Source: Parcubacteria group bacterium LiPW_30
GTDB taxonomy: Bacteria; Patescibacteriota; Minisyncoccia; Phycocordibacterales; VMEP01
Reading direction: 5' to 3'
NCBI GenBank assembly: GCA_007375595.1
Contig: VMEP01000001.1
Coordinates: forward strand, 10,061 to 74,060
DNA: 64,000 bases
Each line of letters starts with the position of its first letter. Position 1 is the stretch's first letter. This document shows positions 1 through 56,441 of this stretch, piece by piece. Under the pieces are notes generated by a model, which worked only from the letters and a program-made list of their open reading frames with translations, was not told where the DNA came from and ran no database searches. Made by a program: the position numbers and the translations under genes.

Positions 1-1711
1 TCTCCGGGGTCTCCCTGTCGTCCTGCGCGACCACGCAACTGATTATCAATTCGGCGCGCTTCGTGGCGTTCCGTACCAATGACAGCAAGCCCACCTAAAT
101 CACGCACCGCTTCATATGTTTCTTTAGTATGAGGATTCCCTCCGAGCTTAATATCAACTCCACGACCAGCCATGTTTGTTGCAATAACAACATTACCCTT
201 CTTTCCAGCCTGAGCAATAATCTCTCCTTCACGTTCGTGATTTTTTGCGTTCAACACTTCGTGCGGAATACCTTCGTGCTTAAAATACTCCGAAAGAATT
301 TCGTTCTTATCAATAGAAGCCGTGCCAATAAGCACCGGTTGCCCTCTTTGATTTAATTCTTTAACACGCGCCGTAAGTGCCTTCCATTTCCCAGTCTCTG
401 TTTGAAAAATTAAATCATTTCTATCTAGTCGCTTAATATCACGATGTGTAGGAATTGCTATAACTTCAAGTCCATAAACCTTGAAAAATTCTTCTGTACT
501 CGTCATCGCGGTTCCTGTCATACCTGAAAGTTTGCCGTATAGTCTGAAGTAATTTTGGAATGAAACAGAAGCTAGCGTCCTTGATTCACGCTCTATATGC
601 ACCCCTTCTTTTGCCTCAATAGCCTGATGTAGGCCCTCTGACCAACGACGACCTGGCTGAAGACGGCCAGTAAACTCATCAACAATAACAATCGCATTAT
701 CTTTAACCACATACTCCTTATCCTTTTCAAAAAGCGCCTTAGCACGAACGGCCGTCTCTAAATGGTGAACGTACTTAATACCTTTTTCTGTGTATAAATT
801 ATCTATTTTTAAGGTCTTTTCTGCCTTTGTAATGCCGGAATCAGTCATTGCAATAGACTTACTCTTCTCATCGACGGTATAATCCTCATCTTTCTTCATC
901 TGAGAGGCGATACGAGCAAAAGTACGGTATAAATCCTCTGATTCTGCCGCTTGTCCGGAAATAATAAGAGGGGTGCGAGCTTCATCAATTAAAATAGAGT
1001 CGATTTCATCAACAATCGCATAAGCATGCCCCCTTTGAACCAACGTTTCTTTTTCATAAGCAAGATGGTCGCGCAAATAATCAAAACCAAACTCATTATT
1101 TGTTCCGTAAGTTATATCTGCGTGATACGCCTCACGTCTTGTACATGGGCGCAAAAATTCATGAACAACATGAAATGACCCAATCAAATCTCGCTCCGCA
1201 TCTTCATCTTTGTGATTAGGATCATAAATAAAAGATGATTCATGGTTGATGATACCAATAGTTAAACCAAGCGCTGAATAAATTTGTCCCATCCACACAC
1301 CATCACGTCGCGCGAGATAATCATTCACGGTAACAATATGCACACCTTCACCGGTTAATGCGTTTAGATATGCCGGCAATGTTGCAACAAGTGTCTTTCC
1401 TTCTCCTGTTCTCATCTCAGCAATGTTGCCATTATGCAAAACGAGGCCACCGATTATTTGTACATCGTAATGACGTTCACCTAAAGTTCTCTTTGAAGCT
1501 TCACGAACCAAAGCAAAAGCCTCCGGCATAATATCATCGAGCGTCTCCCCTTCTGACAAACGTTTTTTAAACTGTTCTGTTTTTTGACGCATCTCATCAA
1601 AAGAAAGTTTCTCTACTTCTTTTTCAAATTCCGCAATTTTTAAAACAGAAGAATTAAGGGCTTTTACAGCCTTTTCACTCGTCGTTCCTAGTATTTTTTC
1701 CAAGAAAAGCA
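1..1711 (-). CDS. secA: Preprotein translocase ATPase SecA. The 5' portion (about 570 N-terminal codons) is in the window; the 3' end lies beyond position 1. The ORF track does not list it because no stop falls in the window.
   Basis: Reverse-strand translation from the ATG at 1711 reads [22 protein letters not shown]...[59 protein letters not shown], the canonical SecA N-terminal DEAD motor region. The frame stays open to position 1. Confidence 0.9.
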
Positions 1712-3995: not shown

Positions 3996-6365
3996 TTATG
4001 GGTTTCTTCCGGCTTTAATTTCTCTAATATAGTATTCTCCTTGATCTTTAAATTGTGGATTTATCTCAATTATTCTCTCTAGTAGACCGACAGCCTTGAG
4101 CCTATCTCCTATTTGAAGATAAGCTGCTGCAAGGGTTAGAAGGGTCTGTGGATCATTTGGATTGCTATTCAATTTTCTTTCTAGAAGAGAAGCTAATTTG
4201 CCGTAATTACCTGTTGTCGCATAAGCATTAATAAGTCGATTGTCTAAATTGTTATCACCCAAAAGTACCTCTGCTTCATCTACTTTTCCACCATAAATTA
4301 AAGATATCGCATATATAACCCTAGCTTCATTGTATGTCTGATCGCCGTCATAAGCTTTCTTCAAAACTTCAATTGCTTTATCAAACTCTTTTCTGTTTAT
4401 GTAAGCTGTCCCAAGTTCAAATAAAACTTGTTGTTTTTGAGGGGAAAGAGTTTGCGCTTTTTCTAGATACGTCACCGCTTCACTAAACTGAGAATAATTA
4501 TTTAACAAACCACCTAAGAATAACGGATAACGTACATCAAGGGGACTTTCTTCGGACTGCTTAATCATTTCGTTACGAGCTAGATTAACAAATTTTTGTT
4601 TTACTTCTACTGGAACGTTTGCTTGATTAATTTTAAGTGACACTTGTATTAATTGTTCTCGCGCTTCCCCACTTCCGAAAGTGTTGTAAGCAAAAGTCTT
4701 TTCAAAATATTCGAGGTTCTTATTAAAACCGCCTTCTACTTCTGAGTGCGGGGAAATTGCCTGTATCAAAGACATCGACGCAGAAATTGGTTTAATGTTA
4801 GCGAAGTACATAACGAGCACAAACCCAATAAACACGGACGGAACAAAAACATAACTAAGTAAGCTCTCTTCATTTTTTTTGTTTGGAGTAATTTGCTTGT
4901 TTTGAGAATTAAATTCATCTTCCCCAAATACCATCACGTTAATAAAACCAATTAACGAAAAGAATAGTATATAACTCACAAGATTATCAAAAACAAAAAG
5001 ATTGTGAAAAAAATATGCGCCAAACAAACCAGTTAAAATACTTTTCTCTGTAACAGTGAGTGACGAAGTAAGTCTCCACAAAGAGTAGAGAGCCGTAGCA
5101 AACATAGAGAGATACGCGAGAAGACCAAGAAAACCCGCGGCTATCAACCAGTCAAAGAAAACATTATGTGATCGATCAAACCATGGTTCCTGACTCCACA
5201 TTTTAGGATTGTAGTGTTTTGCAAATACGGCGATAAAGTTATCCTGTCCCCAGCCCAACAATGGGTTTTCTTTAACTCCCTGCCAGCTCATATTCCAAAT
5301 CATAGCGCGCGATTTAACTGTTTGTTCGGTAAACGAAATAGTTGAAAACCTGCTCAATACTGGACTATCAATAACGACTTGGGAATCTTTGAGTGCGACA
5401 AAAAGTCCAACAAAAAGCACAATTGTGGCGATTACCCCAACCGCAATATTTTTAACAAATCTGTTTTCGCGATTAAACCAAGCAATTAATAAAGCGGACA
5501 AGGCTGCGCCAGCGATGAGTCCTAAAATAGCCCCACGAGTTGCTGTGTAATAAAGAGCAATTAAATCAAGGACGAAGATGAAACAATAGAGCCCGCGATG
5601 AATTAAAACATTTTCATTTTTCACAAAATACAAATATCCAATTGTTGGTAGGCCAATCATGGAAAGCCCGAGGAGTAATTTTCCATAAAAACCTAAGGAT
5701 GCCGTATCACTTGCGACAATGTTTAAACCAAAAATTGCAAACAAAATAAGCCCGATTACCCATGAGTAAAAAATATCAAAGGAACCCTTTCCTTTATTTC
5801 TTACAAACCAAAAAACCATCAAGAAAATATTTATAAGAAGGAAAACAGCAAAATAAGTGGCGTTGCCTAAGGTTGCATCAGCACGAACACTCCCCTGGTT
5901 TATTGTTAACTCGCCGTGCACTTGCATCACTGAATAAAGGGTAAGGAAAAAATTTACTCCGAACAAAACGTGAAAAAATTTACTCCACAATTTTTCTGTC
6001 ACAACAACAGTCGTCACTACAAAGAAATATGCCACAACATGAAGAAGAGAAATTAACCCTTCCATTCTTTCGTAGTTTGACCAAAAACTGCGATAAGGAT
6101 TTATTCCAAAAATATCAGCAATGGCTACAATCCCAAGAAAAGAACCAACCGCAATCGTTATCCAGTTCTTTTTAGGACGATAGGAGGCATCGTAATAAGA
6201 GAGTAAAAGCCAAGCAGCAAAAATGATTTCAACAATAATACGGAATGTGAAATTTTTCCCTGTTATAAACGGGAAAAATAATGGCGTTGAAATTATAAGC
6301 GGAATAAAAGGAACTAGAAAAATACCGCTAATGATAAGACCTCTTAGAAAATTTTTTGTTAACAT
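3996..6365 (-). CDS. Polytopic membrane protein of the O-antigen ligase/polymerase (Wzy_C-like) type with a C-terminal TPR-repeat domain.
   Basis: 789 aa. The N-terminal two thirds hold about 10-12 hydrophobic helices (e.g. WQGVKENPLLGWGQDNF, a loop typical of Wzy_C). The C-terminal third is TPR-like (AYLQIGDRLKAVGLLERIIEINP, YINRKEFDKAIEVLKKA). This fusion is common in small-genome bacteria. Confidence 0.6.
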   Translation of the reverse strand: MLTKNFLRGLIISGIFLVPFIPLIISTPLFFPFITGKNFTFRIIVEIIFAAWLLLSYYDASYRPKKNWITIAVGSFLGIVAIADIFGINPYRSFWSNYERMEGLISLLHVVAYFFVVTTVVVTEKLWSKFFHVLFGVNFFLTLYSVMQVHGELTINQGSVRADATLGNATYFAVFLLINIFLMVFWFVRNKGKGSFDIFYSWVIGLILFAIFGLNIVASDTASLGFYGKLLLGLSMIGLPTIGYLYFVKNENVLIHRGLYCFIFVLDLIALYYTATRGAILGLIAGAALSALLIAWFNRENRFVKNIAVGVIATIVLFVGLFVALKDSQVVIDSPVLSRFSTISFTEQTVKSRAMIWNMSWQGVKENPLLGWGQDNFIAVFAKHYNPKMWSQEPWFDRSHNVFFDWLIAAGFLGLLAYLSMFATALYSLWRLTSSLTVTEKSILTGLFGAYFFHNLFVFDNLVSYILFFSLIGFINVMVFGEDEFNSQNKQITPNKKNEESLLSYVFVPSVFIGFVLVMYFANIKPISASMSLIQAISPHSEVEGGFNKNLEYFEKTFAYNTFGSGEAREQLIQVSLKINQANVPVEVKQKFVNLARNEMIKQSEESPLDVRYPLFLGGLLNNYSQFSEAVTYLEKAQTLSPQKQQVLFELGTAYINRKEFDKAIEVLKKAYDGDQTYNEARVIYAISLIYGGKVDEAEVLLGDNNLDNRLINAYATTGNYGKLASLLERKLNSNPNDPQTLLTLAAAYLQIGDRLKAVGLLERIIEINPQFKDQGEYYIREIKAGRNP

Positions 6366-6449: not shown

Positions 6450-9400
6450 TTATGGAGCAACGCCATATACCCAATTCAAAACACCATATCTTTGGTGTGG
6501 AGGAGTTGCTGACGTTCCAATGAAAAAATTATTAAAGGCTATTCTTTCTGTAATATTTACCGAACCGCCATTTATAAGTGGATTTTCGTAAATAACAGCA
6601 AAATAATTTTCGCCAGAAACGAAGTTGGTTGGATTTATATTAAACAACTGCCCATATTCAGAATTTGTTCCCATGTCCAACCCATAAATACTAGTTGAAC
6701 TACCAACTACCCCACGATACAAGCCGGCAACCTTATATCCGGTTAGAGAATCTGTCAAAAAGCGACAGTTATAATAAGATGAACCAGAAAGCGCGGGAGT
6801 ATAGTATTCATTCTCCAAAAAACTCGAGGTATAAGAATCACAGTAAAAACCAACACGCCCCATACTTATGCTATTTCGCGCTTTTGGTGTTCCATTAATA
6901 GCATTTCCATCTTTGTCGTGTCCGGTCAAATAAGACCCATCGTTTTGTCCCCAATTATTTTTATCACTTCCAATAGTGTCAGAAGGTTTTCTTTCCATCG
7001 TTTTGTAATCAGGAGAAGATCCACCACCACACCAACCACCGCATTCTGATAAAATTGGTGTTTGGTCGACAGTTGAAGTTGACACGCCACCACCAAAAAT
7101 TAAACTCAAAACTTCGCCGTCGTTTGAAAGACCGGCGCCACCACTTAACCCACTAAAAGGAACAGCTAAATCAACTACAACATCTGAAAATATATCTCCA
7201 GAAGCGCCACGTCCAATCAAAAAATATCCATTGGGTGGAATGGTACCAGAAAGCGGAATATGCGGAGTGCCGTCTTCGGCGGATATATAAAGTCCTGATA
7301 AATTAAGTGAGTAGATAGTTCTATTTTTTAGTTCAATCCATTCAGCATAAGGTGAAGCTATATTCCCTGCCCACGCAACTTCGTTGATAATTATCGGCAT
7401 ATGACTTGCCGTGAAGTAAGTTGTATTGCCACTGGTTGAAAGATCACTGTTTCCAAAAATACTAACAGCAACAACTTTCAAGTCATATGGCCCTTCTGTG
7501 GTTGGAACAACAACAGAAGTCTCACTTGTTGTTGCAATAGTTGAAAACCCTGTCAAATTTGTTCCTTTAATTATTTCAAAATAACTGTAATTGGGTGTAT
7601 TAACTGACCAAGAAATGGTAGCTTGCCCAGCTGGAATAAAACACGACTGCGGTGGTGACTGCAAAGAATAAGCACACTCAGCAACACTCACTCCTGTTGC
7701 TCTAGGCTGTACCGTGTAAACATTAAAAACGGCGTCGCTTGAATCGGAGATGTTGTTGTTTTGATCAACAACAAAAAATTTTATTGTTGTTGTCCCTTCC
7801 GGTAAATCAGAAAATGGAATTGACCACACAGTGGAGGAAGCTATCACCGTGGTCACGCTATTAAAATTATTCGTTACCGTAAATCCTGGTGTTGCAGTCC
7901 CGGAAAAAGTAACAGACTTTTCCCGAAGCTGTAGTGGAAAGGTGTGTGAAGTAATCGCGGGTGGCGAGACGACAGGAATATCAACCGTTAATGTAACTTC
8001 TTGTTGACCAATATTTTCATTACCCAAAACTCTCGCAAAAAATTGTATCGTGCTCGCCCCTTGTGGAAAGAGAGATACAGAGAATGACCAATTCCCTTCT
8101 CCTGAAGAGGTCGTGGTAGCTTGCGAAAAAGAATTTGAGATAACTGCGCCAGGAGTCGAGGTGCCAGAGAATATTATCGTTGTCGTTGCGAACGTTTGAG
8201 AAAAATCAACTGGTGATGTTACGGAAATTAAAACTTGTTCTGGTTCGCTTGAGACATCGGCGACATTAAGCGTCTCCTCAACAGAAGATGTTTGTGTTTG
8301 TTCTTGTGTTTGTGTTACAGCGGGCGCACTACCGCCACCAAACCCAGGAGAAAAACCACTACCAAAATTTATCTTTGGTTCTGAAATATTATTTACAGCT
8401 GGCTCTGGTGCGGTTGTTTCTTTCGCAATTATTGTATTTACTACTGATTCTGTTGGGTTACCCTCATTCTGCGCTTCGCCTTGAGACACCACTTCCGTTT
8501 GTTGAATCGTTTGATTTGATTCGGCAATTACAACAGGAGTATTTTGATTAGTAGTTTTTATTTGTGTTTGTGTTTGTCCGTTTGTACTACTATTTTCTGT
8601 AGCTAAAACTACTGCCGCGCCACTATTTGAGTTACTAAAAGCAAAATTGGTAACAACCTGTATACCAGACCCAATAGCCGAAGCAATATTTTTTGTCGCG
8701 CCATAAACACCGCTCGCTACCGCAAGCGTCCCGTCTAATGTAGTTTCCGCTACTGGATCGACAACGGCAAAAATCGCACCCTCGACCTTATGCGCGGTAG
8801 TAAGTTTCGGTGGCGCAATACAAGGTAAATTTTCACTATTATTAGCCTTCAAATTATCGAGTGATCCTTTAATATCGGAAACAATTTGATTGGCGCGATA
8901 TTTTATATAAACATCTGAAAAATTATGTCCAAGTTTATCATCCCCTTCTTTTAATTCGATGTTCGTGTTTGCTGGCATAATTTTCCTAAACGGCACGCTA
9001 GCGACAAAATCAGAAATAACTTTATCGGTACTTGAGGTAAGCCACTTTCCACCGCCCGCAACGCGACTAGCTGGAGTGGCAACGGAATAAACAGCAATAG
9101 AGTTTGCAGAAGCATTTTCTTGATTCCCGTAAACTTTGTCGTGAAAACTGTTAGCGTAAAAATTGCCCTGTGAATGGGCAACGAGGAGCACTTTTTTAGT
9201 TTTAACTTTTTCACTGGCCGATTGAAGCATTTCAACCAGATCGTAATCTTCTACTGTTTCTTCATCAAAAACTTTTTGATATAGAGCCTTTAACCCATCA
9301 CCAATGCCAGCGAGGTGGGAGGGATTGTGAAGATAATCTACGATTAGCGGTTCATTGTTGTGAGTTGCCCGCAATCTACTTTTTAATCTATCTTTATTCT

Positions 9401-9563
9401 TGATAGCATCGATCTCATCAGTAAATACTCCATTTATAGCAAATACACTGTACCCTTCTGACAAGCACTTATCAGCACCTTGGGCGTAACCAAAAAATGG
9501 AAAAAGGAATATCGCTATCGTAAATATAAATAATTTATATTCCAATAAGATGTATTTCTTCAT
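6450..9563 (-). CDS. Large secreted multidomain protein: signal peptide, alpha/beta-hydrolase (lipase/esterase-like, AHSQGN nucleophile elbow), S/T/Q-rich linker, two Ig-like repeats, C-terminal lamin-tail domain (LTD).
   Basis: N-terminus MKKYILLEYKLFIFTIAIFLFPFFGYAQG; VLLVAHSQGNFYAN; about 200 aa of T/S/Q/N low complexity; repeated FSGT(A/S)TPG Ig-like units; LTD signature IINEVAWAGNIASPYAEWIELKNRTIYSLNLSGLYISAEDG...PPNGYFLIG. Confidence 0.6.
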   Translation of the reverse strand: MKKYILLEYKLFIFTIAIFLFPFFGYAQGADKCLSEGYSVFAINGVFTDEIDAIKNKDRLKSRLRATHNNEPLIVDYLHNPSHLAGIGDGLKALYQKVFDEETVEDYDLVEMLQSASEKVKTKKVLLVAHSQGNFYANSFHDKVYGNQENASANSIAVYSVATPASRVAGGGKWLTSSTDKVISDFVASVPFRKIMPANTNIELKEGDDKLGHNFSDVYIKYRANQIVSDIKGSLDNLKANNSENLPCIAPPKLTTAHKVEGAIFAVVDPVAETTLDGTLAVASGVYGATKNIASAIGSGIQVVTNFAFSNSNSGAAVVLATENSSTNGQTQTQIKTTNQNTPVVIAESNQTIQQTEVVSQGEAQNEGNPTESVVNTIIAKETTAPEPAVNNISEPKINFGSGFSPGFGGGSAPAVTQTQEQTQTSSVEETLNVADVSSEPEQVLISVTSPVDFSQTFATTTIIFSGTSTPGAVISNSFSQATTTSSGEGNWSFSVSLFPQGASTIQFFARVLGNENIGQQEVTLTVDIPVVSPPAITSHTFPLQLREKSVTFSGTATPGFTVTNNFNSVTTVIASSTVWSIPFSDLPEGTTTIKFFVVDQNNNISDSSDAVFNVYTVQPRATGVSVAECAYSLQSPPQSCFIPAGQATISWSVNTPNYSYFEIIKGTNLTGFSTIATTSETSVVVPTTEGPYDLKVVAVSIFGNSDLSTSGNTTYFTASHMPIIINEVAWAGNIASPYAEWIELKNRTIYSLNLSGLYISAEDGTPHIPLSGTIPPNGYFLIGRGASGDIFSDVVVDLAVPFSGLSGGAGLSNDGEVLSLIFGGGVSTSTVDQTPILSECGGWCGGGSSPDYKTMERKPSDTIGSDKNNWGQNDGSYLTGHDKDGNAINGTPKARNSISMGRVGFYCDSYTSSFLENEYYTPALSGSSYYNCRFLTDSLTGYKVAGLYRGVVGSSTSIYGLDMGTNSEYGQLFNINPTNFVSGENYFAVIYENPLINGGSVNITERIAFNNFFIGTSATPPHQRYGVLNWVYGVAP

Positions 9564-9567
9564 TCTT

Positions 9568-10215
9568 TTAGTTAGACAGTTGTGAATAATCTATATCGCA
9601 CTCCTCATCTTTTACTGAATTAGCAAAGTTTCCAATATTTTTATAAAAATCTTTTCGTGCCTTTTCCCGAGTATCGGTATTAAATTGCCTATCTTCAATA
9701 AAATCAATAAATGTATCTATTTTTTCAACATCTGTATTACTTCTGTCAGATTCAGGGGTTTCCCTTGGCACAAGACTATCAGCAATACAAAAACCTGCCC
9801 TACTCTGTTCCCCAATCACTTTGTCTACTACGGTTGTATTAACTATTGACTGCGTAACCCCCATTTGCAAAGCGAGTGCATACTGCAAAAGAGCTGCCCT
9901 TGTTTTAGCCGAGTTTGGATATTCTTTAAAAATTGCGAGTTCTACGTCATCGCGAATTCCATTTGTGTTAGCATCAATTCCCACAACCGTCTTATCAGCT
10001 TCCGCCCCTGGGTCGGGTGGCAAGTTTCTACCAAAAACATCATCTAGTGTAAGTTTGGTTGAATGTATTTTTTCAACCTGTTTATTTGTTTTCTCTAAAT
10101 TCCAAAAATGAAAAGCTCGATAAATTACCAATGCAACATAAATAATAAAAATAACGGCGAGCGCCCGTAATAAAATCTTCTTCCACCCCCAAGTTAAAAT
10201 GGACATATTCCCCAA
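9568..10215 (-). CDS. Hypothetical membrane-anchored protein (single N-terminal TM). Its start is 4 nt from the stop of the large LTD protein gene, so they are probably co-transcribed.
   Basis: 215 aa; N-terminal hydrophobic helix ILLRALAVIFIIYVALVIYRAF followed by a hydrophilic acidic domain; no recognisable family. Confidence 0.45.
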   Translation of the reverse strand: MGNMSILTWGWKKILLRALAVIFIIYVALVIYRAFHFWNLEKTNKQVEKIHSTKLTLDDVFGRNLPPDPGAEADKTVVGIDANTNGIRDDVELAIFKEYPNSAKTRAALLQYALALQMGVTQSIVNTTVVDKVIGEQSRAGFCIADSLVPRETPESDRSNTDVEKIDTFIDFIEDRQFNTDTREKARKDFYKNIGNFANSVKDEECDIDYSQLSN

Positions 10216-10294
10216 ATTTTAACAAACACTGCTCAAACTTTCCCCTCTTCCACAGCAAATCTGTGGATAACTCCCTTCTTATCATTTTCCCCTG

Positions 10295-10332
10295 CCCACC
10301 TATAATTACGCGGTCGCGTAATTATAGGTGGG
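10295..10332. promoter_or_regulatory. 38-bp palindrome (18-bp arms, 2-nt spacer): candidate operator, copy 1. It lies upstream of the membrane-protein/LTD operon and downstream of the regulator gene.
   Basis: cccacctataattacgcg-gt-cgcgtaattataggtggg, a perfect inverted repeat containing a TATAAT-like core. Confidence 0.55.
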
Positions 10333-10349
10333 CTAGAAAATTAAATTAT

Positions 10350-10919
10350 TTAAAAAATACCAAATTCTTTTTTGAGAAATTTATCGTTCTCTACTTTATC
10401 GGCAATTATATAAAGAACGTCCTTCCCTATTTTAAAATCAGCCTTCATAAGAGTAATCAAGTCTTCACAATCGTATGGATACACCCAAACACTGTTCTGT
10501 AATTTTAAAAAACCAAAGCTTTCTATTGTTCTTTTGAGTTTCTCTCTAAGCGTTTTATTTTCTTCTTTAATATCATAAATAACAATTCTCCATTTACCAT
10601 CCCATTTTTTTGGTTTAGGTAATACTCCATTATCATACATTTGATATAAACGTCTTTCGCCTTCAGTGGTAAGGCGAACAAAATTCCCCTTTTCTATTTT
10701 TTCAAACTTTATTAATCCTTTTTCAACAAGCCGATCAACCGAACGTTTTACCCAGTAGTTGTCTCTTCTAATAATCCCTAATTTATTAAATGCGCCAACA
10801 ACACTCGGCGAAATTAACGCAACACTTAATATTCCAGCCCCTTTAATGATAGACAAAATAGTTTTCTGGACGTCTTCCTTTCGTGCTCTCTTTTTTGATT
10901 CTTTTTCAAGTATCCCCAT
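10350..10919 (-). CDS. Winged-helix DNA-binding protein with a C-terminal ferredoxin-like domain of PaaX_C / Cas2-like architecture; putative transcriptional regulator.
   Basis: N-terminal wHTH-like segment ...LVEKGLIKFEKIEKGNFVRLTTEGERRL...; C-terminal WDGKWRIVIYDIKEENKTLREKLKRTIESFGFLKLQNSVWVYPYD parallels the Cas2/PaaX pattern (VLVxYDV...GQRVQNSVFEC). Flanked on both sides by near-identical palindromes. Confidence 0.5.
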   Translation of the reverse strand: MGILEKESKKRARKEDVQKTILSIIKGAGILSVALISPSVVGAFNKLGIIRRDNYWVKRSVDRLVEKGLIKFEKIEKGNFVRLTTEGERRLYQMYDNGVLPKPKKWDGKWRIVIYDIKEENKTLREKLKRTIESFGFLKLQNSVWVYPYDCEDLITLMKADFKIGKDVLYIIADKVENDKFLKKEFGIF

Positions 10920-10970
10920 AACTTAAATATTAGCAGTAATCTAATGACTTAACGTTTTAAGCCATTTTAT

Positions 10971-11014
10971 CACCCCATCTATAATTACGCGACCGCGTAA
11001 TTATAGATGGGGTG
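10971..11014. promoter_or_regulatory. 44-bp palindrome: candidate operator, copy 2. It sits immediately upstream of the regulator gene and probably mediates autoregulation.
   Basis: caccccatctataattacgcg-ac-cgcgtaattatagatggggtg; shares the core CTATAATTACGCG-NN-CGCGTAATTATAG with copy 1. Confidence 0.55.
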
Positions 11015-11099
11015 AATTACTACCAAATTATTCCAGAATTATTTCTGAATAATGTATTTTTATATAAAACACTAAAACAATGTAGTTCAACGCAATCTT

Positions 11100-11978
11100 C
11101 TATACGTTTTTTTGCCAAGAAAAATCTCCGCGTACAGTTTTTTTACCATCCCTTTTTATATAATCTTCCAAAAGTTCTGAGCTTGAACGGACCTTTCCGC
11201 TTTTTCCAATATTAAAAACCATCTCCACTCCTAATTCTTTACAAATCTTCGCTTCTGGTATTGCGTTCTCATCTTTTCTGTCACCTCCGTTAGCAAAAAT
11301 GTGTGGGCGTATTTTTTCAATTGCCTCACCAACATCATCACGGTCAGTTTCCAAAATAAAAACATCATCTACGTGTTTAATTCCTTTTATAAGTGTTGCG
11401 CGATCATTTTGATTCATGAAATATTTTCCTTTTTTACGAATGAGCCACGCATCACAATTAATCACCACGATAAGCTTATTTCCCAAAGCTTTCGCTTCTT
11501 CAAACATCTCCAGGTGACCTACGTGTATAGGGTCAAACCCCCCGCTCACCACAACTATTTTTTCTTTCTCGTTTATTTGTTCGCTGTCTTCCCCTGTTCT
11601 ACCGTAATCATCTTCATATCGAACAATATCTCCTTCGTCGGCAGCGCTACCGTGTACAAATTCAACGTAGACACCACGAAGCAAGCGGTGTTTTTCTCTA
11701 GGCTTCACTCTATAAAAACCAACATGCCATTCGTGATGCTTGTCGTCTTCCTCGGTTCCTTGAATCCCCTTGCCACGAACTATTCTAAAATATGCGCCCG
11801 GAAGCACGTAGTGTTTATTTTTAGGAGTAACCTTAAAAACCCCAAGTTGCCACTCAGTACGATGATTATGACTCTTAAGACTTGTCTGCCCACCAACCAC
11901 AAGAAATTTAACCCAAAAATTTTTGTGGTGAACAAGTTTCCACATTCTCCCCCATGGTCGTCTCATATAAAAAGCCAT
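11100..11978 (-). CDS. Cytidylyl/adenylyl-transferase (HIGH-motif nucleotidyltransferase, RfaE domain II / glycerol-3-phosphate cytidylyltransferase-like) with a novel internally duplicated N-terminal domain.
   Basis: C-terminal half: IVVVSGGFDPIHVGHLEMFEEAKALGNKLIVVINCDAWL...RATLIKGIKHVDDVFIL (HxGH motif). N-terminal about 140 aa contain two copies of a W-x-L/VG-F-x-V-x-P-x-xKH-x-L-x-G-x-Y motif (EWQLGVFKVTPKNKHYVLPGAYFRIVRGKG / EWHVGFYRVKPREKHRLLRGVYVEFVHGS). Confidence 0.6.
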   Translation of the reverse strand: MAFYMRRPWGRMWKLVHHKNFWVKFLVVGGQTSLKSHNHRTEWQLGVFKVTPKNKHYVLPGAYFRIVRGKGIQGTEEDDKHHEWHVGFYRVKPREKHRLLRGVYVEFVHGSAADEGDIVRYEDDYGRTGEDSEQINEKEKIVVVSGGFDPIHVGHLEMFEEAKALGNKLIVVINCDAWLIRKKGKYFMNQNDRATLIKGIKHVDDVFILETDRDDVGEAIEKIRPHIFANGGDRKDENAIPEAKICKELGVEMVFNIGKSGKVRSSSELLEDYIKRDGKKTVRGDFSWQKNV

Positions 11979-12104
11979 TTTGTCTTTTGCAGTATAAGTT
12001 AAGTTTGAGTTATTTCTATCATTAAATACCTAGTAAACCAAGGAACACCTTATTTAAGGTAACTTTTTGTCTCTAAGAGTTGTTATATAGTAGAGTCGAC
12101 AAAA

Positions 12105-55706: not shown

Positions 55707-55855
55707 ACATAAAATTTTGTCGTCACAAAATTTTTGCTAGCCGCGCCTCGCGATTTTTGTTGCTACAAAAATATCGCTCCGGCGTTCAAATCTCTCGCGC
55801 AATGTGTGCAGACACATTGCTCGCCTCCGCAGTTTTTCACTGCGTTTCAAAACTG

Positions 55856-56009
55856 CGGAGGCGGAGAGATTCGAACTCTCGGTGGGTTGCCCCACACAGA
55901 CTTTCCAGGTCTGCGCACTAGACCGCCCACCGCTAAAGCGGGGTCCCGCCTCATCGCATCCTGCGAGATCCCGCCAAAGGCGGTGAAAAGGCGGTGATAT
56001 GCGACCTTA
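55856..56009 (-). pseudogene. tRNA-Ser(GGA)-derived pseudo-copy. Its 3' 70 nt (D-loop to 3' end) are identical to the intact gene; about 75 nt of unrelated GC-rich sequence are inserted in the D-loop, and the 5' acceptor strand is replaced.
   Basis: 55856-55925 matches 56019-56088 of the intact tRNA exactly, then diverges (cccaccgctaaagcggggtcccgcc...ggcggtgatatgcgacc). The 5' end reads TATAAGGTCGCATA instead of GGAGGCGTCGCATA and cannot pair with the 3' CGCCTCC. Confidence 0.5.
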
Positions 56010-56018
56010 TATACAAAG

Positions 56019-56103
56019 CGGAGGCGGAGAGATTCGAACTCTCGGTGGGTTGCCCCACACAGACTTTCCAGGTCTGCGCACTAGACCGCTATGCGACGCC
56101 TCC
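56019..56103 (-). tRNA. tRNA-Ser (anticodon GGA), intact, with a long variable arm.
   Basis: Minus strand GGAGGCG-TC-GCA-TAGCGGTCTAG-TGC-G-CAGAC-CTGGAAA-GTCTG-TGTGGGGCAACCCACC-GAGAG-TTCGAAT-CTCTC-CGCCTCC-G; anticodon loop CU-GGA-AA; class II variable arm GTGGG/CCCAC. Confidence 0.8.
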
Positions 56104-56124: not shown

Positions 56125-56382
56125 CTAAGAAATTAACTTTTTAAATGCTTCCCCTCCTTTGTATGACTTTATTTTTTTCTCTCTCAGCCAAGCTTCCTTC
56201 TTAGAATCAAAAACTTCTTTGTACACTAATCTCCATGGGCTACCACTTTTTGTTGAACGGTTCGCTCCAGAATTATGATGTTTCAACCTATCATCAATAT
56301 TTGATGTAAATCCAATATAATATCTACTTGTTACTTCGCTTTGAATTATATATACGCTGTACATTTTTACTAGACCGCCCAC
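56125..56382 (-). CDS. Small GIY-YIG nuclease family protein (second copy of this family in the window).
   Basis: MYSVYIIQSEVTSRYYIGFTSNIDDRLKHHNSGANRSTKSGSPWRLVYKEVFDSKKEAWLREKKIKSYKG. Confidence 0.75.
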   Translation of the reverse strand: MGGLVKMYSVYIIQSEVTSRYYIGFTSNIDDRLKHHNSGANRSTKSGSPWRLVYKEVFDSKKEAWLREKKIKSYKGGEAFKKLIS

Positions 56383-56441
56383 CGCTAAAGCGGGATCCCG
56401 CCAACGGCGGTGACCCAGAGGCGGTGATATGCGACGCCTCC
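56370..56441 (-). other. tRNA-Ser 5' fragment (positions 1-14 plus D-loop) split by a 50-nt insert. It overlaps the start of the GIY-YIG gene.
   Basis: Minus strand GGAGGCGTCGCATA + TCACCGCCTCTGGGTCACCGCCGTTGGCGGGATCCCGCTTTAGCGGTGGG + CGGTCTAG, followed 5 nt later by the ATG of the GIY-YIG ORF. The insert is related to the insert in the pseudo-copy at 55926-56000. Confidence 0.45.

Follow-up and report, generated by a model that had tools for sequence, protein, structure and literature searches.

The window analysed in this work is a stretch of 64,000 nucleotides (nt) from Parcubacteria group bacterium LiPW_30 (contig VMEP01000001.1, positions 10,061 to 74,060), an ultra-small groundwater bacterium of the Patescibacteria. 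On its minus strand, a gene at positions 10350-10919 encodes a protein of 189 amino acids (aa), hereafter the regulator, in which an N-terminal winged helix is combined with a Cas2-like PaaX_M domain (residues ~104-177). This gene is bracketed by the two longest palindromes of the window. The upstream palindrome (10970-11015) is 46 nt long, with perfect arms of 22 nt and the centre AC on the plus strand; the downstream palindrome (10294-10333) is 40 nt long, with perfect arms of 19 nt and the centre GT on the plus strand. Similar palindromes recur across the family of the regulator, on one or both sides of the gene in about one third of the sampled members.

A search for the core CTATAATTACGCG-NN-CGCGTAATTATAG returned exactly two matches in the 64 kb of the window, at 10300-10327 and 10979-11006; no third copy was found there with three mismatches allowed, and none of 100 shuffled sequences contained a match. 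The outward extension of these cores gave the two perfect palindromes, in agreement with an earlier sequence-only reading of the region, which had reported two near-identical palindromes flanking the gene with coordinates that were right to within 1-4 nt. The upstream palindrome lies 84 nt past the stop codon of a cytidylyltransferase-like gene and 50 nt short of the regulator ATG, while the downstream palindrome extends from 16 nt past the regulator stop codon to 87 nt short of the ATG of the next gene (10206). The distance between them is 641 nt. The two copies are 89% identical when compared as direct repeats and 95% identical as reverse complements, because their central dinucleotides are inverted (GT vs AC). 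Their sole internal difference, a C/T change at the fifth base, is mirrored on the opposite arm, so that each copy remains a perfect palindrome.

A putative extended -10-like motif, TGATAAAAT (10964-10972, minus strand), straddles the promoter-proximal edge of the upstream palindrome. This motif was read from the sequence, the consensus promoter scan having skipped it, and it is not accompanied by a -35 match. It is kept in two orthologous loci (L088 and L089; sampled loci are designated by L numbers), where it is also found beside a third copy of the palindrome, and we infer that it may serve as a promoter element. Between the upstream palindrome and the ATG, the leader contains a small palindrome that would form a 10-bp hairpin (10943-10966, minus strand) with one G.T pair on the sense strand; it has a counterpart in L088-L091. 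We rejected the two long palindromes as intrinsic terminators, since neither has a T-run and neither was listed by the terminator scan; canonical terminators with a GC stem and a T-run occur in related loci and look different. A known RNA family was also rejected, the only Rfam matches being sub-threshold, hairpin-like ones.

Around the downstream palindrome, the best promoter-like match (TTATCA-16-TATAAT, 10279-10306, plus strand, 10/12) uses the TATAAT of the palindrome itself and points antisense into the regulator gene. Promoter-like matches in the region are no more numerous than in shuffled sequences. Additionally, a perfect DnaA-box-like 9-mer, TTATCCACA, is located between the downstream palindrome and the next gene (10262-10270, minus strand) and again at 2181-2189; it is kept in L001 and L087-L089, and in the window it is followed by a short inverted repeat, CCACAG-N5-CTGTGG. 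A replication origin was rejected, given that DnaA boxes form no cluster (22 near-matches vs 17.8 expected).

The regulator and its family

In a Pfam search (E ≤ 0.01), the regulator matched PaaX_M ('PaaX central Cas2-like domain', PF20803; residues 104-177, E 2.1e-20, 73 bits vs a cutoff of 24) and CRISPR_Cas2 only, and no family was assigned to its N-terminal domain at that threshold. The NCBIfam model of PaaX, TIGR02277, was matched at 52 bits against a cutoff of 264.55, over model positions 33-138 of 279. The cas2 model TIGR01573 scored 29.8 bits, above its cutoff of 24.5, over residues 110-150 of the regulator, and the Cas2 models of PADLOC matched with an E-value of 1e-7. In the AlphaFold (AF2) model of the protein, with a mean pLDDT of 68.7, the C-terminal domain reaches 80-90, residues 54-83 are predicted to form two helices followed by a beta-wing, and residues 29-53 fall below 50. 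The best solved structure retrieved by Foldseek was that of E. coli PaaX (8a39; E 1e-6, 179 aligned columns), followed by Rv0674 and 3l09. Considered by domain, the N-terminal part resembles MarR/PadR proteins and the C-terminal part resembles Cas2 and VapD. The motif WDGKW is common to the regulator and PaaX. These results, which include the structural comparison with PaaX and Cas2 that the sequence-only reading had suggested, bear out its description of a winged-helix protein with a PaaX/Cas2-like fold.

As judged from the sequence profiles and the predicted structure of its two domains, the regulator is a member of the PaaX superfamily. It falls outside the full-length definition of PaaX, having neither the C-terminal domain nor a paa context: the helical domain that binds the effector phenylacetyl-CoA in PaaX is absent, the regulator ending at residue 189, and no paa catabolic genes were found near the gene in the window or at the homolog loci sampled. 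Nor is the regulator a CRISPR Cas2 in function. A CRISPR remnant was rejected, with no cas1 and no array; no cas1, other cas gene or CRISPR array was found in L001-L006 and L087-L091, whose called genes cover up to ~10 kb to either side. The sequence-only reading had considered a Cas2-like domain outside CRISPR unusual, which it is not, as this is the standard middle domain of PaaX (PF20803) and clustered relatives of the short form number more than 1,500. Searches of Pfam, NCBIfam and PHROGs and the fold search found no recombinase or transposase domain in the regulator, their only matches being to PaaX, Cas2 and winged-helix proteins.

In an alignment of 36 family members, 24 residues are invariant in the Cas2-like half, compared with five in the DNA-binding half. 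Among the former is D116, at the position of the Cas2 beta1 aspartate. PaaX likewise has an acidic residue at this position; D116 is therefore not diagnostic and is no proof of catalysis.

Our sequence search identified 1,596 clustered relatives of the short form. All named relatives are from Patescibacteria (Paceibacteria, Nomura-, Taylor-, Zambryski-, Kaiser- and Adlerbacteria), and many carry the public label 'CRISPR-associated endonuclease Cas2'. In contigs representing one genome per species, relatives are encoded by at least 562 stretches, and a single genome has up to three of them. A search of 2.9 million viral contigs returned only one distant relative and no palindrome match; a phage or defence context was rejected on the basis of this single distant match and of PADLOC having returned only weak Cas2 models. 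A possible second family member at ~25.7 kb in the window proved to be a spurious weak match inside a gene of 442 aa.

Palindromes across the family

We sampled 80 homolog loci from other Patescibacteria species, and scored a palindrome as family-type when each arm measured 14 nt or more and the centre, closed by G/C, was TATA, GGTC/GACC, GATC or GGCC. In the 86 kb lying within 250 nt of the homolog genes, 39 such palindromes were found, compared with four in the remaining 524 kb, which corresponds to a density ~59-fold higher near the homolog genes than in the rest of the loci. At least one family-type palindrome was present within 250 nt in 24 of the 80 loci, and one on each side in 13, both counts being lower bounds as some loci are cut by contig ends. 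Upstream palindromes were compared at 20 loci, namely the window lineage and 19 homolog loci. In 18 of these, the end of the palindrome falls at -4 to +59 nt relative to the ATG, which the palindrome sometimes covers; an ATGGG start lies inside the right arm in L015, L037, L044, L078 and L100. The upstream neighbour is on the same strand, at a short distance, in 14 of the 20. Downstream copies start 13-118 nt past the stop codon. Where the two copies of a pair have an asymmetric centre, they are inverted relative to each other in five of six cases.

In L007, L019 and L052, the outer right arm of the upstream palindrome forms a Shine-Dalgarno-like run (GGAGGAGG, GGGGGAGG and GGGAGGTG, respectively) just before the ATG, and the outer left arm is its exact complement, so that a read-through transcript would hide the ribosome-binding site. 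In L037, three copies of one palindrome are present (1000-1043, ~1405-1448 and ~2048-2093); the first and second bracket a tRNA-Leu(cag) gene (1177-1259, minus strand), the second and third bracket the family gene, and the first and third have a common right flank, GGTTTTTTG. Five independent contigs end in or at a palindrome, one 46 nt past the stop codon (L002) and four starting 50-71 nt before the ATG (L005, L006, L004 and L090). Assembler breaks at long perfect palindromes, or a strain-variable region, are the probable cause of these ends rather than biology.

The comparison of the 39 sites revealed a common plan. Beside the 4-nt centre, C occupies position -1 in 38 of the 39 and G position -2 in 30; an AT-rich stretch, an A at position -13 (32 sites) preceded by C, and a C-rich outer end complete the arm. 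As a result, conserved CA and TG dinucleotides lie ~30 bp apart within palindromes of 38-46 bp, around a GC-(TATA/GRYC)-GC centre. Most family-type sites have the fully symmetric TATA centre, and the perfect palindromes of the family range from 40 to 58 bp. Their arm sequences vary from locus to locus and between paralogs of one genome (L015 vs L050; L019 vs L026). The copies at one gene resemble each other, are perfectly symmetrical and change together. Mismatches between arms amount to 18 among 1068 positions, and only three of them are G.T, which is no commoner than the other mismatch types.

Among close orthologs, the one with 95% identity has a TATA centre in both copies, vs GGTC/GACC in the window; in the 84% ortholog, the upstream copy has a different outer motif (CACGAC); and in the 78% ortholog, the arms differ at four of 13 core positions and all four arms have an insertion of 2-3 nt. 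In the orthologs L087-L091, the position of the upstream palindrome is kept and its sequence is altered. Relative to the 95% ortholog, windowed identity is 0.88 in the stretch with the upstream palindrome vs 0.34-0.74 in the surrounding intergenic DNA. The position of the gene is stable in orthologs and in wider synteny groups.

Copies are also found away from the family gene. Searching a metagenome collection with the pattern TATAATTACGC-N4-GCGTAATTATA gave 22 contigs in all. A family gene adjoins the site in five of them, and three of these genes are only 41-48% identical to the window protein. Another ten contigs, which reduce to seven distinct sites, have no family gene over the 1 kb or more available to either side; we refer to these as solo sites. 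A PHP-domain gene lies beside one of them. The outer motifs of sites that match the core vary from site to site. A generic genome-wide repeat, for which the sequence-only reading had looked to copies in the hundreds, was rejected as far as the window and the sampled contigs show: the core occurs twice in 64 kb and in 22 contigs of the collection, solo copies included, and palindromes of the related kind are seldom seen at a distance from homolog genes.

In the 84% and 95% orthologs, the palindrome is present a third time, in the intergenic region between the HTH_17 and cytidylyltransferase genes, at ~3010-3060 in L088 and ~2060-2110 in L089 (equivalent to 3235-3260 in L095). It sits in ~300 nt that are missing from the window (equivalent position ~12000-12060), L001 and L087, and ~45 nt of its flank are similar to the regulator leader. 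In L109, a solo palindrome of the window type, with a GACC centre and the outer motif CACCCACC, has a further family-type palindrome of different sequence, CTACAATTATAACGC-GATA-GCGTTATAATTGTAG, ~75 nt away; the two sites, at 2250-2303 and ~2362-2405, lie between gatB and a small MerR/HTH_17 gene. The core search also found, in contigs without a family gene, a different palindromic arrangement of the same words, (CG)n-TAATTATAATTA-(CG)n (L110, 941-966; L112, 1503-1528 and 4310-4335). A comparison with empty sites was uninformative about mobility, as no clean empty site was found and shared neighbours were not cleanly syntenic.

Function of the palindromes

We consider that the likeliest reading, with a probability of about 0.5, is that of an autoregulated short repressor of the PaaX type for which the palindromes serve as duplex-DNA operators. 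The regulator would combine a winged helix with a Cas2-like dimerisation domain, without the effector-binding C-terminal domain, and its dimer would bind the flanking palindromes as double-stranded operators. The two winged helices would contact the conserved CA and TG dinucleotides ~30 bp apart, with the GC-(TATA or GRYC)-GC centre placed under the dimer core. The upstream site would overlap or abut the promoter and start region of the gene itself, leading to autorepression. The downstream site would be the second operator of the regulator unit and could act as an auxiliary looping site or as a roadblock that insulates the unit from adjacent genes; it may, in the present lineage alone, also influence read-through into the genes of the surface proteins. 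Quasipalindrome template switching, a documented replication error that turns imperfect inverted repeats into perfect ones (PMC7202029), would act on top of selection on a few contact positions to produce the perfect symmetry and the concerted change of the arms, and would also account for mirrored indels and for arms that reach over the start codon.

A duplex operator is the most economical explanation because it joins the association with one protein family, homology to an autorepressor whose site is of comparable span, a location at the start of the gene and the lack of RNA-type signatures. E. coli PaaX represses its own gene from the site TGATTC-N27-GAATCA, of 39 bp in all (PMC9493321), and this 6-N27-6 arrangement appears similar in span and symmetry to the palindromes described here. 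The specificity of the association, in that different paralogs in one genome bear different arms, was counted in favour of the operator reading, as was the essential absence of the family from viral contigs. The near absence of G.T pairs and the self-palindromic centres argue against a role at the RNA level. Autoregulation through the upstream copy, as proposed in the sequence-only reading, is plausible for a site that stops 50 nt short of the ATG. The anatomy of the locus, its association with palindromes across the family and the protein fold are shown by the data; the binding, the overlap with a promoter and the part played by the downstream copy are what we infer.

Several observations weigh against the operator reading or are poorly explained by it. 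No long family-type palindrome was found within 250 nt of the gene in 56 of the 80 homolog loci. Where a downstream copy is present, it faces a convergent gene in 12 of 16 loci, with no promoter there to regulate. The consensus scan found no convincing -35 element for a -35/-10 promoter in the palindromes. The scattered solo sites adjoin unrelated housekeeping genes (gatB, an aminoacyl-tRNA synthetase gene, rpsF and recR), and at least one is located between convergent genes. An identical 26-nt core stands beside proteins that are 41-48% identical and have differing recognition helices, and below 70% protein identity the resemblance of half-sites is uncorrelated with that of the proteins, although the latter test neither proves nor excludes specific recognition because all half-sites have a common consensus. 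In the 16 two-copy loci, 37 differences between copies were symmetric, affecting both arms, vs 10 asymmetric, a count that is biased by the collection of near-perfect palindromes only; a homodimer model does not predict such symmetric differences between the copies at one gene. Finally, the strong conservation of the Cas2-like domain, set against that of the DNA-binding half, hints at an activity beyond dimerisation.

Some of these observations fit better with an element or cassette of the REP/RAYT kind, an explanation that we find rather unlikely. The palindromes, as hairpins or cruciforms, would mark the ends of a selfish or domesticated unit, and the winged-helix/Cas2-like protein would recognise, and may nick, the hairpins to copy, move or maintain the palindromes. 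RAYT genes are always flanked by two inverted palindromic repeats, which lie very near the stop codon, and the palindromy of REP sequences is maintained through complementary changes (Nunvar et al. 2010, PMC2817692). The anatomy described here fits that account, with palindromes tight against both gene ends and mostly inverted where their centres allow it to be seen. The solo copies in unrelated intergenic regions, including one between convergent genes, the extra copy with its ~45 nt of similar flank in the closest orthologs, the bracketed tRNA gene of L037, the identical core beside distant paralogs, and a strongly conserved Cas2-like domain that keeps D116 point in the same direction. Nevertheless, the protein does not belong to the HUH/Y1 transposases and lacks any known recombinase or transposase domain, and the acidic residue of PaaX deprives D116 of diagnostic value. 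The copies are few (two in the 64-kb window and ~4 family-type solo sites in 524 kb), the gene position is stable in orthologs and synteny groups, most homologs lack a long palindrome, and no clean empty site was found. Additionally, the loops are themselves palindromic, which a hairpin does not need. In a stronger form of this proposal, these loci would represent a new palindrome-associated system of the Patescibacteria, a REP/RAYT analogue built on a Cas2-type domain in place of an HUH transposase, whose protein recognises and possibly nicks its own repeats as hairpins or cruciforms and seeds solo copies through the genome; we hold this to be distinctly unlikely.

It also seems improbable that the palindromes act as RNA hairpins in read-through transcripts, where they would insulate, terminate, stabilise or process (e.g., through RNase III) the regulator mRNA or, alternatively, hide its ribosome-binding site and start codon, protein binding not being needed. 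If transcribed, the two window copies would fold with predicted energies of -36 and -34 kcal/mol (z = -10 and -9). The frequent same-strand upstream neighbour (14/20), the outer right arms that often contain a Shine-Dalgarno-like G-run or an ATGGG start complemented by the left arm, and the downstream copies at the 3' end, often facing a convergent gene, are consistent with such a role. However, wobble pairs are almost absent (three G.T among 1068 positions), and the tetranucleotides of the loops (TATA, GATC, GGCC) are self-complementary, a property that is not needed for an RNA fold. The palindromes have no T-run, were not detected as terminators, differ from the canonical terminators of the same loci and match no Rfam family, and a generic RNA element would not be enriched ~59-fold beside one protein family.

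The genes that adjoin the regulator were taken by the sequence-only reading as a surface module under its dedicated control. Upstream, on the same strand, is the cytidylyltransferase-like gene (11100-11978, minus strand). Downstream, also on the minus strand, are the genes of a 212-aa protein without a Pfam match (9568-10206), which the sequence-only reading described as a small membrane protein, of a 1037-aa protein (6450-9563) and of a 789-aa protein with Wzy_C (O-antigen ligase-like) and TPR domains (3996-6365). The last of these agrees with the earlier description of a Wzy-like/TPR protein; we regard it and the 1037-aa protein as local context only. In the 1037-aa protein, the proposed lamin-tail domain (LTD) corresponds to a weak match (E 1e-6) that is below the Pfam cutoff, and the alpha/beta-hydrolase domain found no support in any sequence search. 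Between the window and related loci, identity is 91-97% for the upstream genes, including the cytidylyltransferase-like gene, 78-100% for the regulator, 50-83% for the 212-aa protein and 68-90% for the LTD protein; in this lineage, the regulator thus marks the boundary between conserved and fast-evolving genes. Between 9300 and 10290, the 212-aa gene and the part encoding the N-terminus of the LTD protein are hypervariable relative to L001 and L087-L089, with DNA identities that drop to 30-60%. A tract of ~100% identity with strain L001 (11124-10286) ends at the downstream palindrome. Elsewhere in the window, most of the tRNA-Ser(gga) gene (56018-56103, minus strand) is present as an exact 72-nt duplicate (55855-55926 and 56018-56089, 163 nt away), and a second repeat pair, of 34 nt, is found at 55917-55950 and 56369-56402; the duplication resembles that of an attachment site at a tRNA gene.

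A dedicated switch for the surface module of 212-aa, LTD and Wzy/TPR proteins, with the downstream palindrome as the operator of their operon, is in our view quite improbable. Its basis is local: the downstream copy of this lineage is placed 87 nt ahead of the following same-strand gene, orthologs of 78-95% identity have the same gene order, and the regulator stands exactly between conserved (91-97%) and fast-evolving surface genes (50-90%). The LTD and Wzy neighbours were found only at orthologs of at least 78% identity. The neighbours of the 80 homologs are housekeeping genes of diverse kinds (aminoacyl-tRNA synthetase, NUDIX, M16 peptidase, RecJ, RNase H, ComEC, LigA, TopA and tRNAs), no such module lies beside them, and a conserved functional partner gene was rejected across these loci. 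Since the module is missing from the 80 homolog loci and the next gene is mostly convergent (12/16), the arrangement is a property of the regulator unit, to which the downstream copy belongs without being generally an operator of the downstream operon, and an influence on the surface genes, if there is one, would be a local by-product. The regulator and its palindromes thus probably form a unit that regulates itself, and not a switch for the adjacent surface-protein genes.

An invertible or excisable segment, in which the palindromes would be hixL/hixR-like crossover sites that flip or remove the regulator gene, is very improbable: the inverted central dinucleotides (GT vs AC), the joint switch of both centres between close relatives, as expected if cores must match, and the end of the L001 identity tract at the downstream palindrome would suit it, but neither the regulator nor the adjacent genes encode a recombinase domain, all of the at least 10 independent assemblies of the lineage show a single orientation, the symmetric TATA centre of most sites gives no directionality, and contig breaks at palindromes are an expected assembler artefact.

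Comparison with known systems

Patescibacteria have tiny genomes with few recognisable regulators. The short PaaX/Cas2-like family, with several paralogs per genome and usually mislabelled 'Cas2', may be one of their main DNA-binding families, and in genome surveys these genes should not count as evidence of CRISPR. Dozens of family members come with ready candidate binding sites in their bracketing palindromes, so that the specificity with which proteins of uncultivated bacteria recognise DNA is directly testable in vitro. The palindromes of 40-58 bp, perfect despite sequence turnover, also offer a natural case for the study of palindrome maintenance, by template switching or by hairpin selection. 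If the protein were to act on hairpins and not on duplex DNA, it would be a new kind of repeat-associated element on a Cas2 fold, and a Cas2-derived protein with palindromic repeats outside CRISPR would bear on how Cas2 was first associated with palindromic repeats. A full-text literature search found no published description of a palindrome-bracketed PaaX/Cas2-like arrangement; the bracketed arrangement, its recurrence in about a third of the sampled family and the concerted symmetric evolution of the sites are apparently undescribed.

With Cas2 and VapD, the regulator shares a C-terminal domain that keeps the Cas2 hallmarks (YDI...R...G..LQ.SVW) and passes TIGR01573. Unlike Cas2, this domain is fused to a DNA-binding domain and is accompanied by no cas1, CRISPR array or other cas gene; the repeats are full palindromes 641 nt apart and not direct repeats with short spacers, as in CRISPR. 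The resemblance to Hin/hix lies in a gene of ~190 aa between palindromic sites whose 2-bp core is inverted, alongside surface-protein genes, whereas the serine-recombinase domain is lacking and no alternative orientation was seen in any of the assemblies compared.

REP/RAYT systems share more features with the loci described here: a gene bracketed by inverted cognate palindromes near its ends, palindromy that is kept by paired changes, a mostly vertical inheritance of repeat and gene, and solo repeats elsewhere in intergenic DNA. They differ in that the fold of the regulator is unrelated to theirs (it is not an IS200/IS605-like HUH/Y1 protein), there is no GTAG/GGAG head, the palindromes are perfect rather than imperfect, and only about a third of the family carries the repeats. 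The copy numbers also appear to differ, REP sequences typically exceeding 100 per genome, compared with two copies in 64 kb and ~4 solo sites in 524 kb of related genomes here.

The closest counterpart is PaaX (TIGR02277, PDB 8a39), the best structural match, which has the same order of a winged helix followed by the Cas2-like domain PF20803 and the same WDGKW motif. PaaX represses its own promoter, and its inverted hexamers, 27 bp apart, appear similar to the palindromes of the window in span and symmetry. In contrast to the regulator, with its 189 aa, PaaX has ~316 aa and an effector-binding C-terminal domain. In the loci described here, paa genes are absent from the neighbourhood, the palindromes are perfect over their full length, and sites lie on both sides of the gene; the short family, moreover, is restricted to Patescibacteria, whose small genomes contain several paralogs of it.

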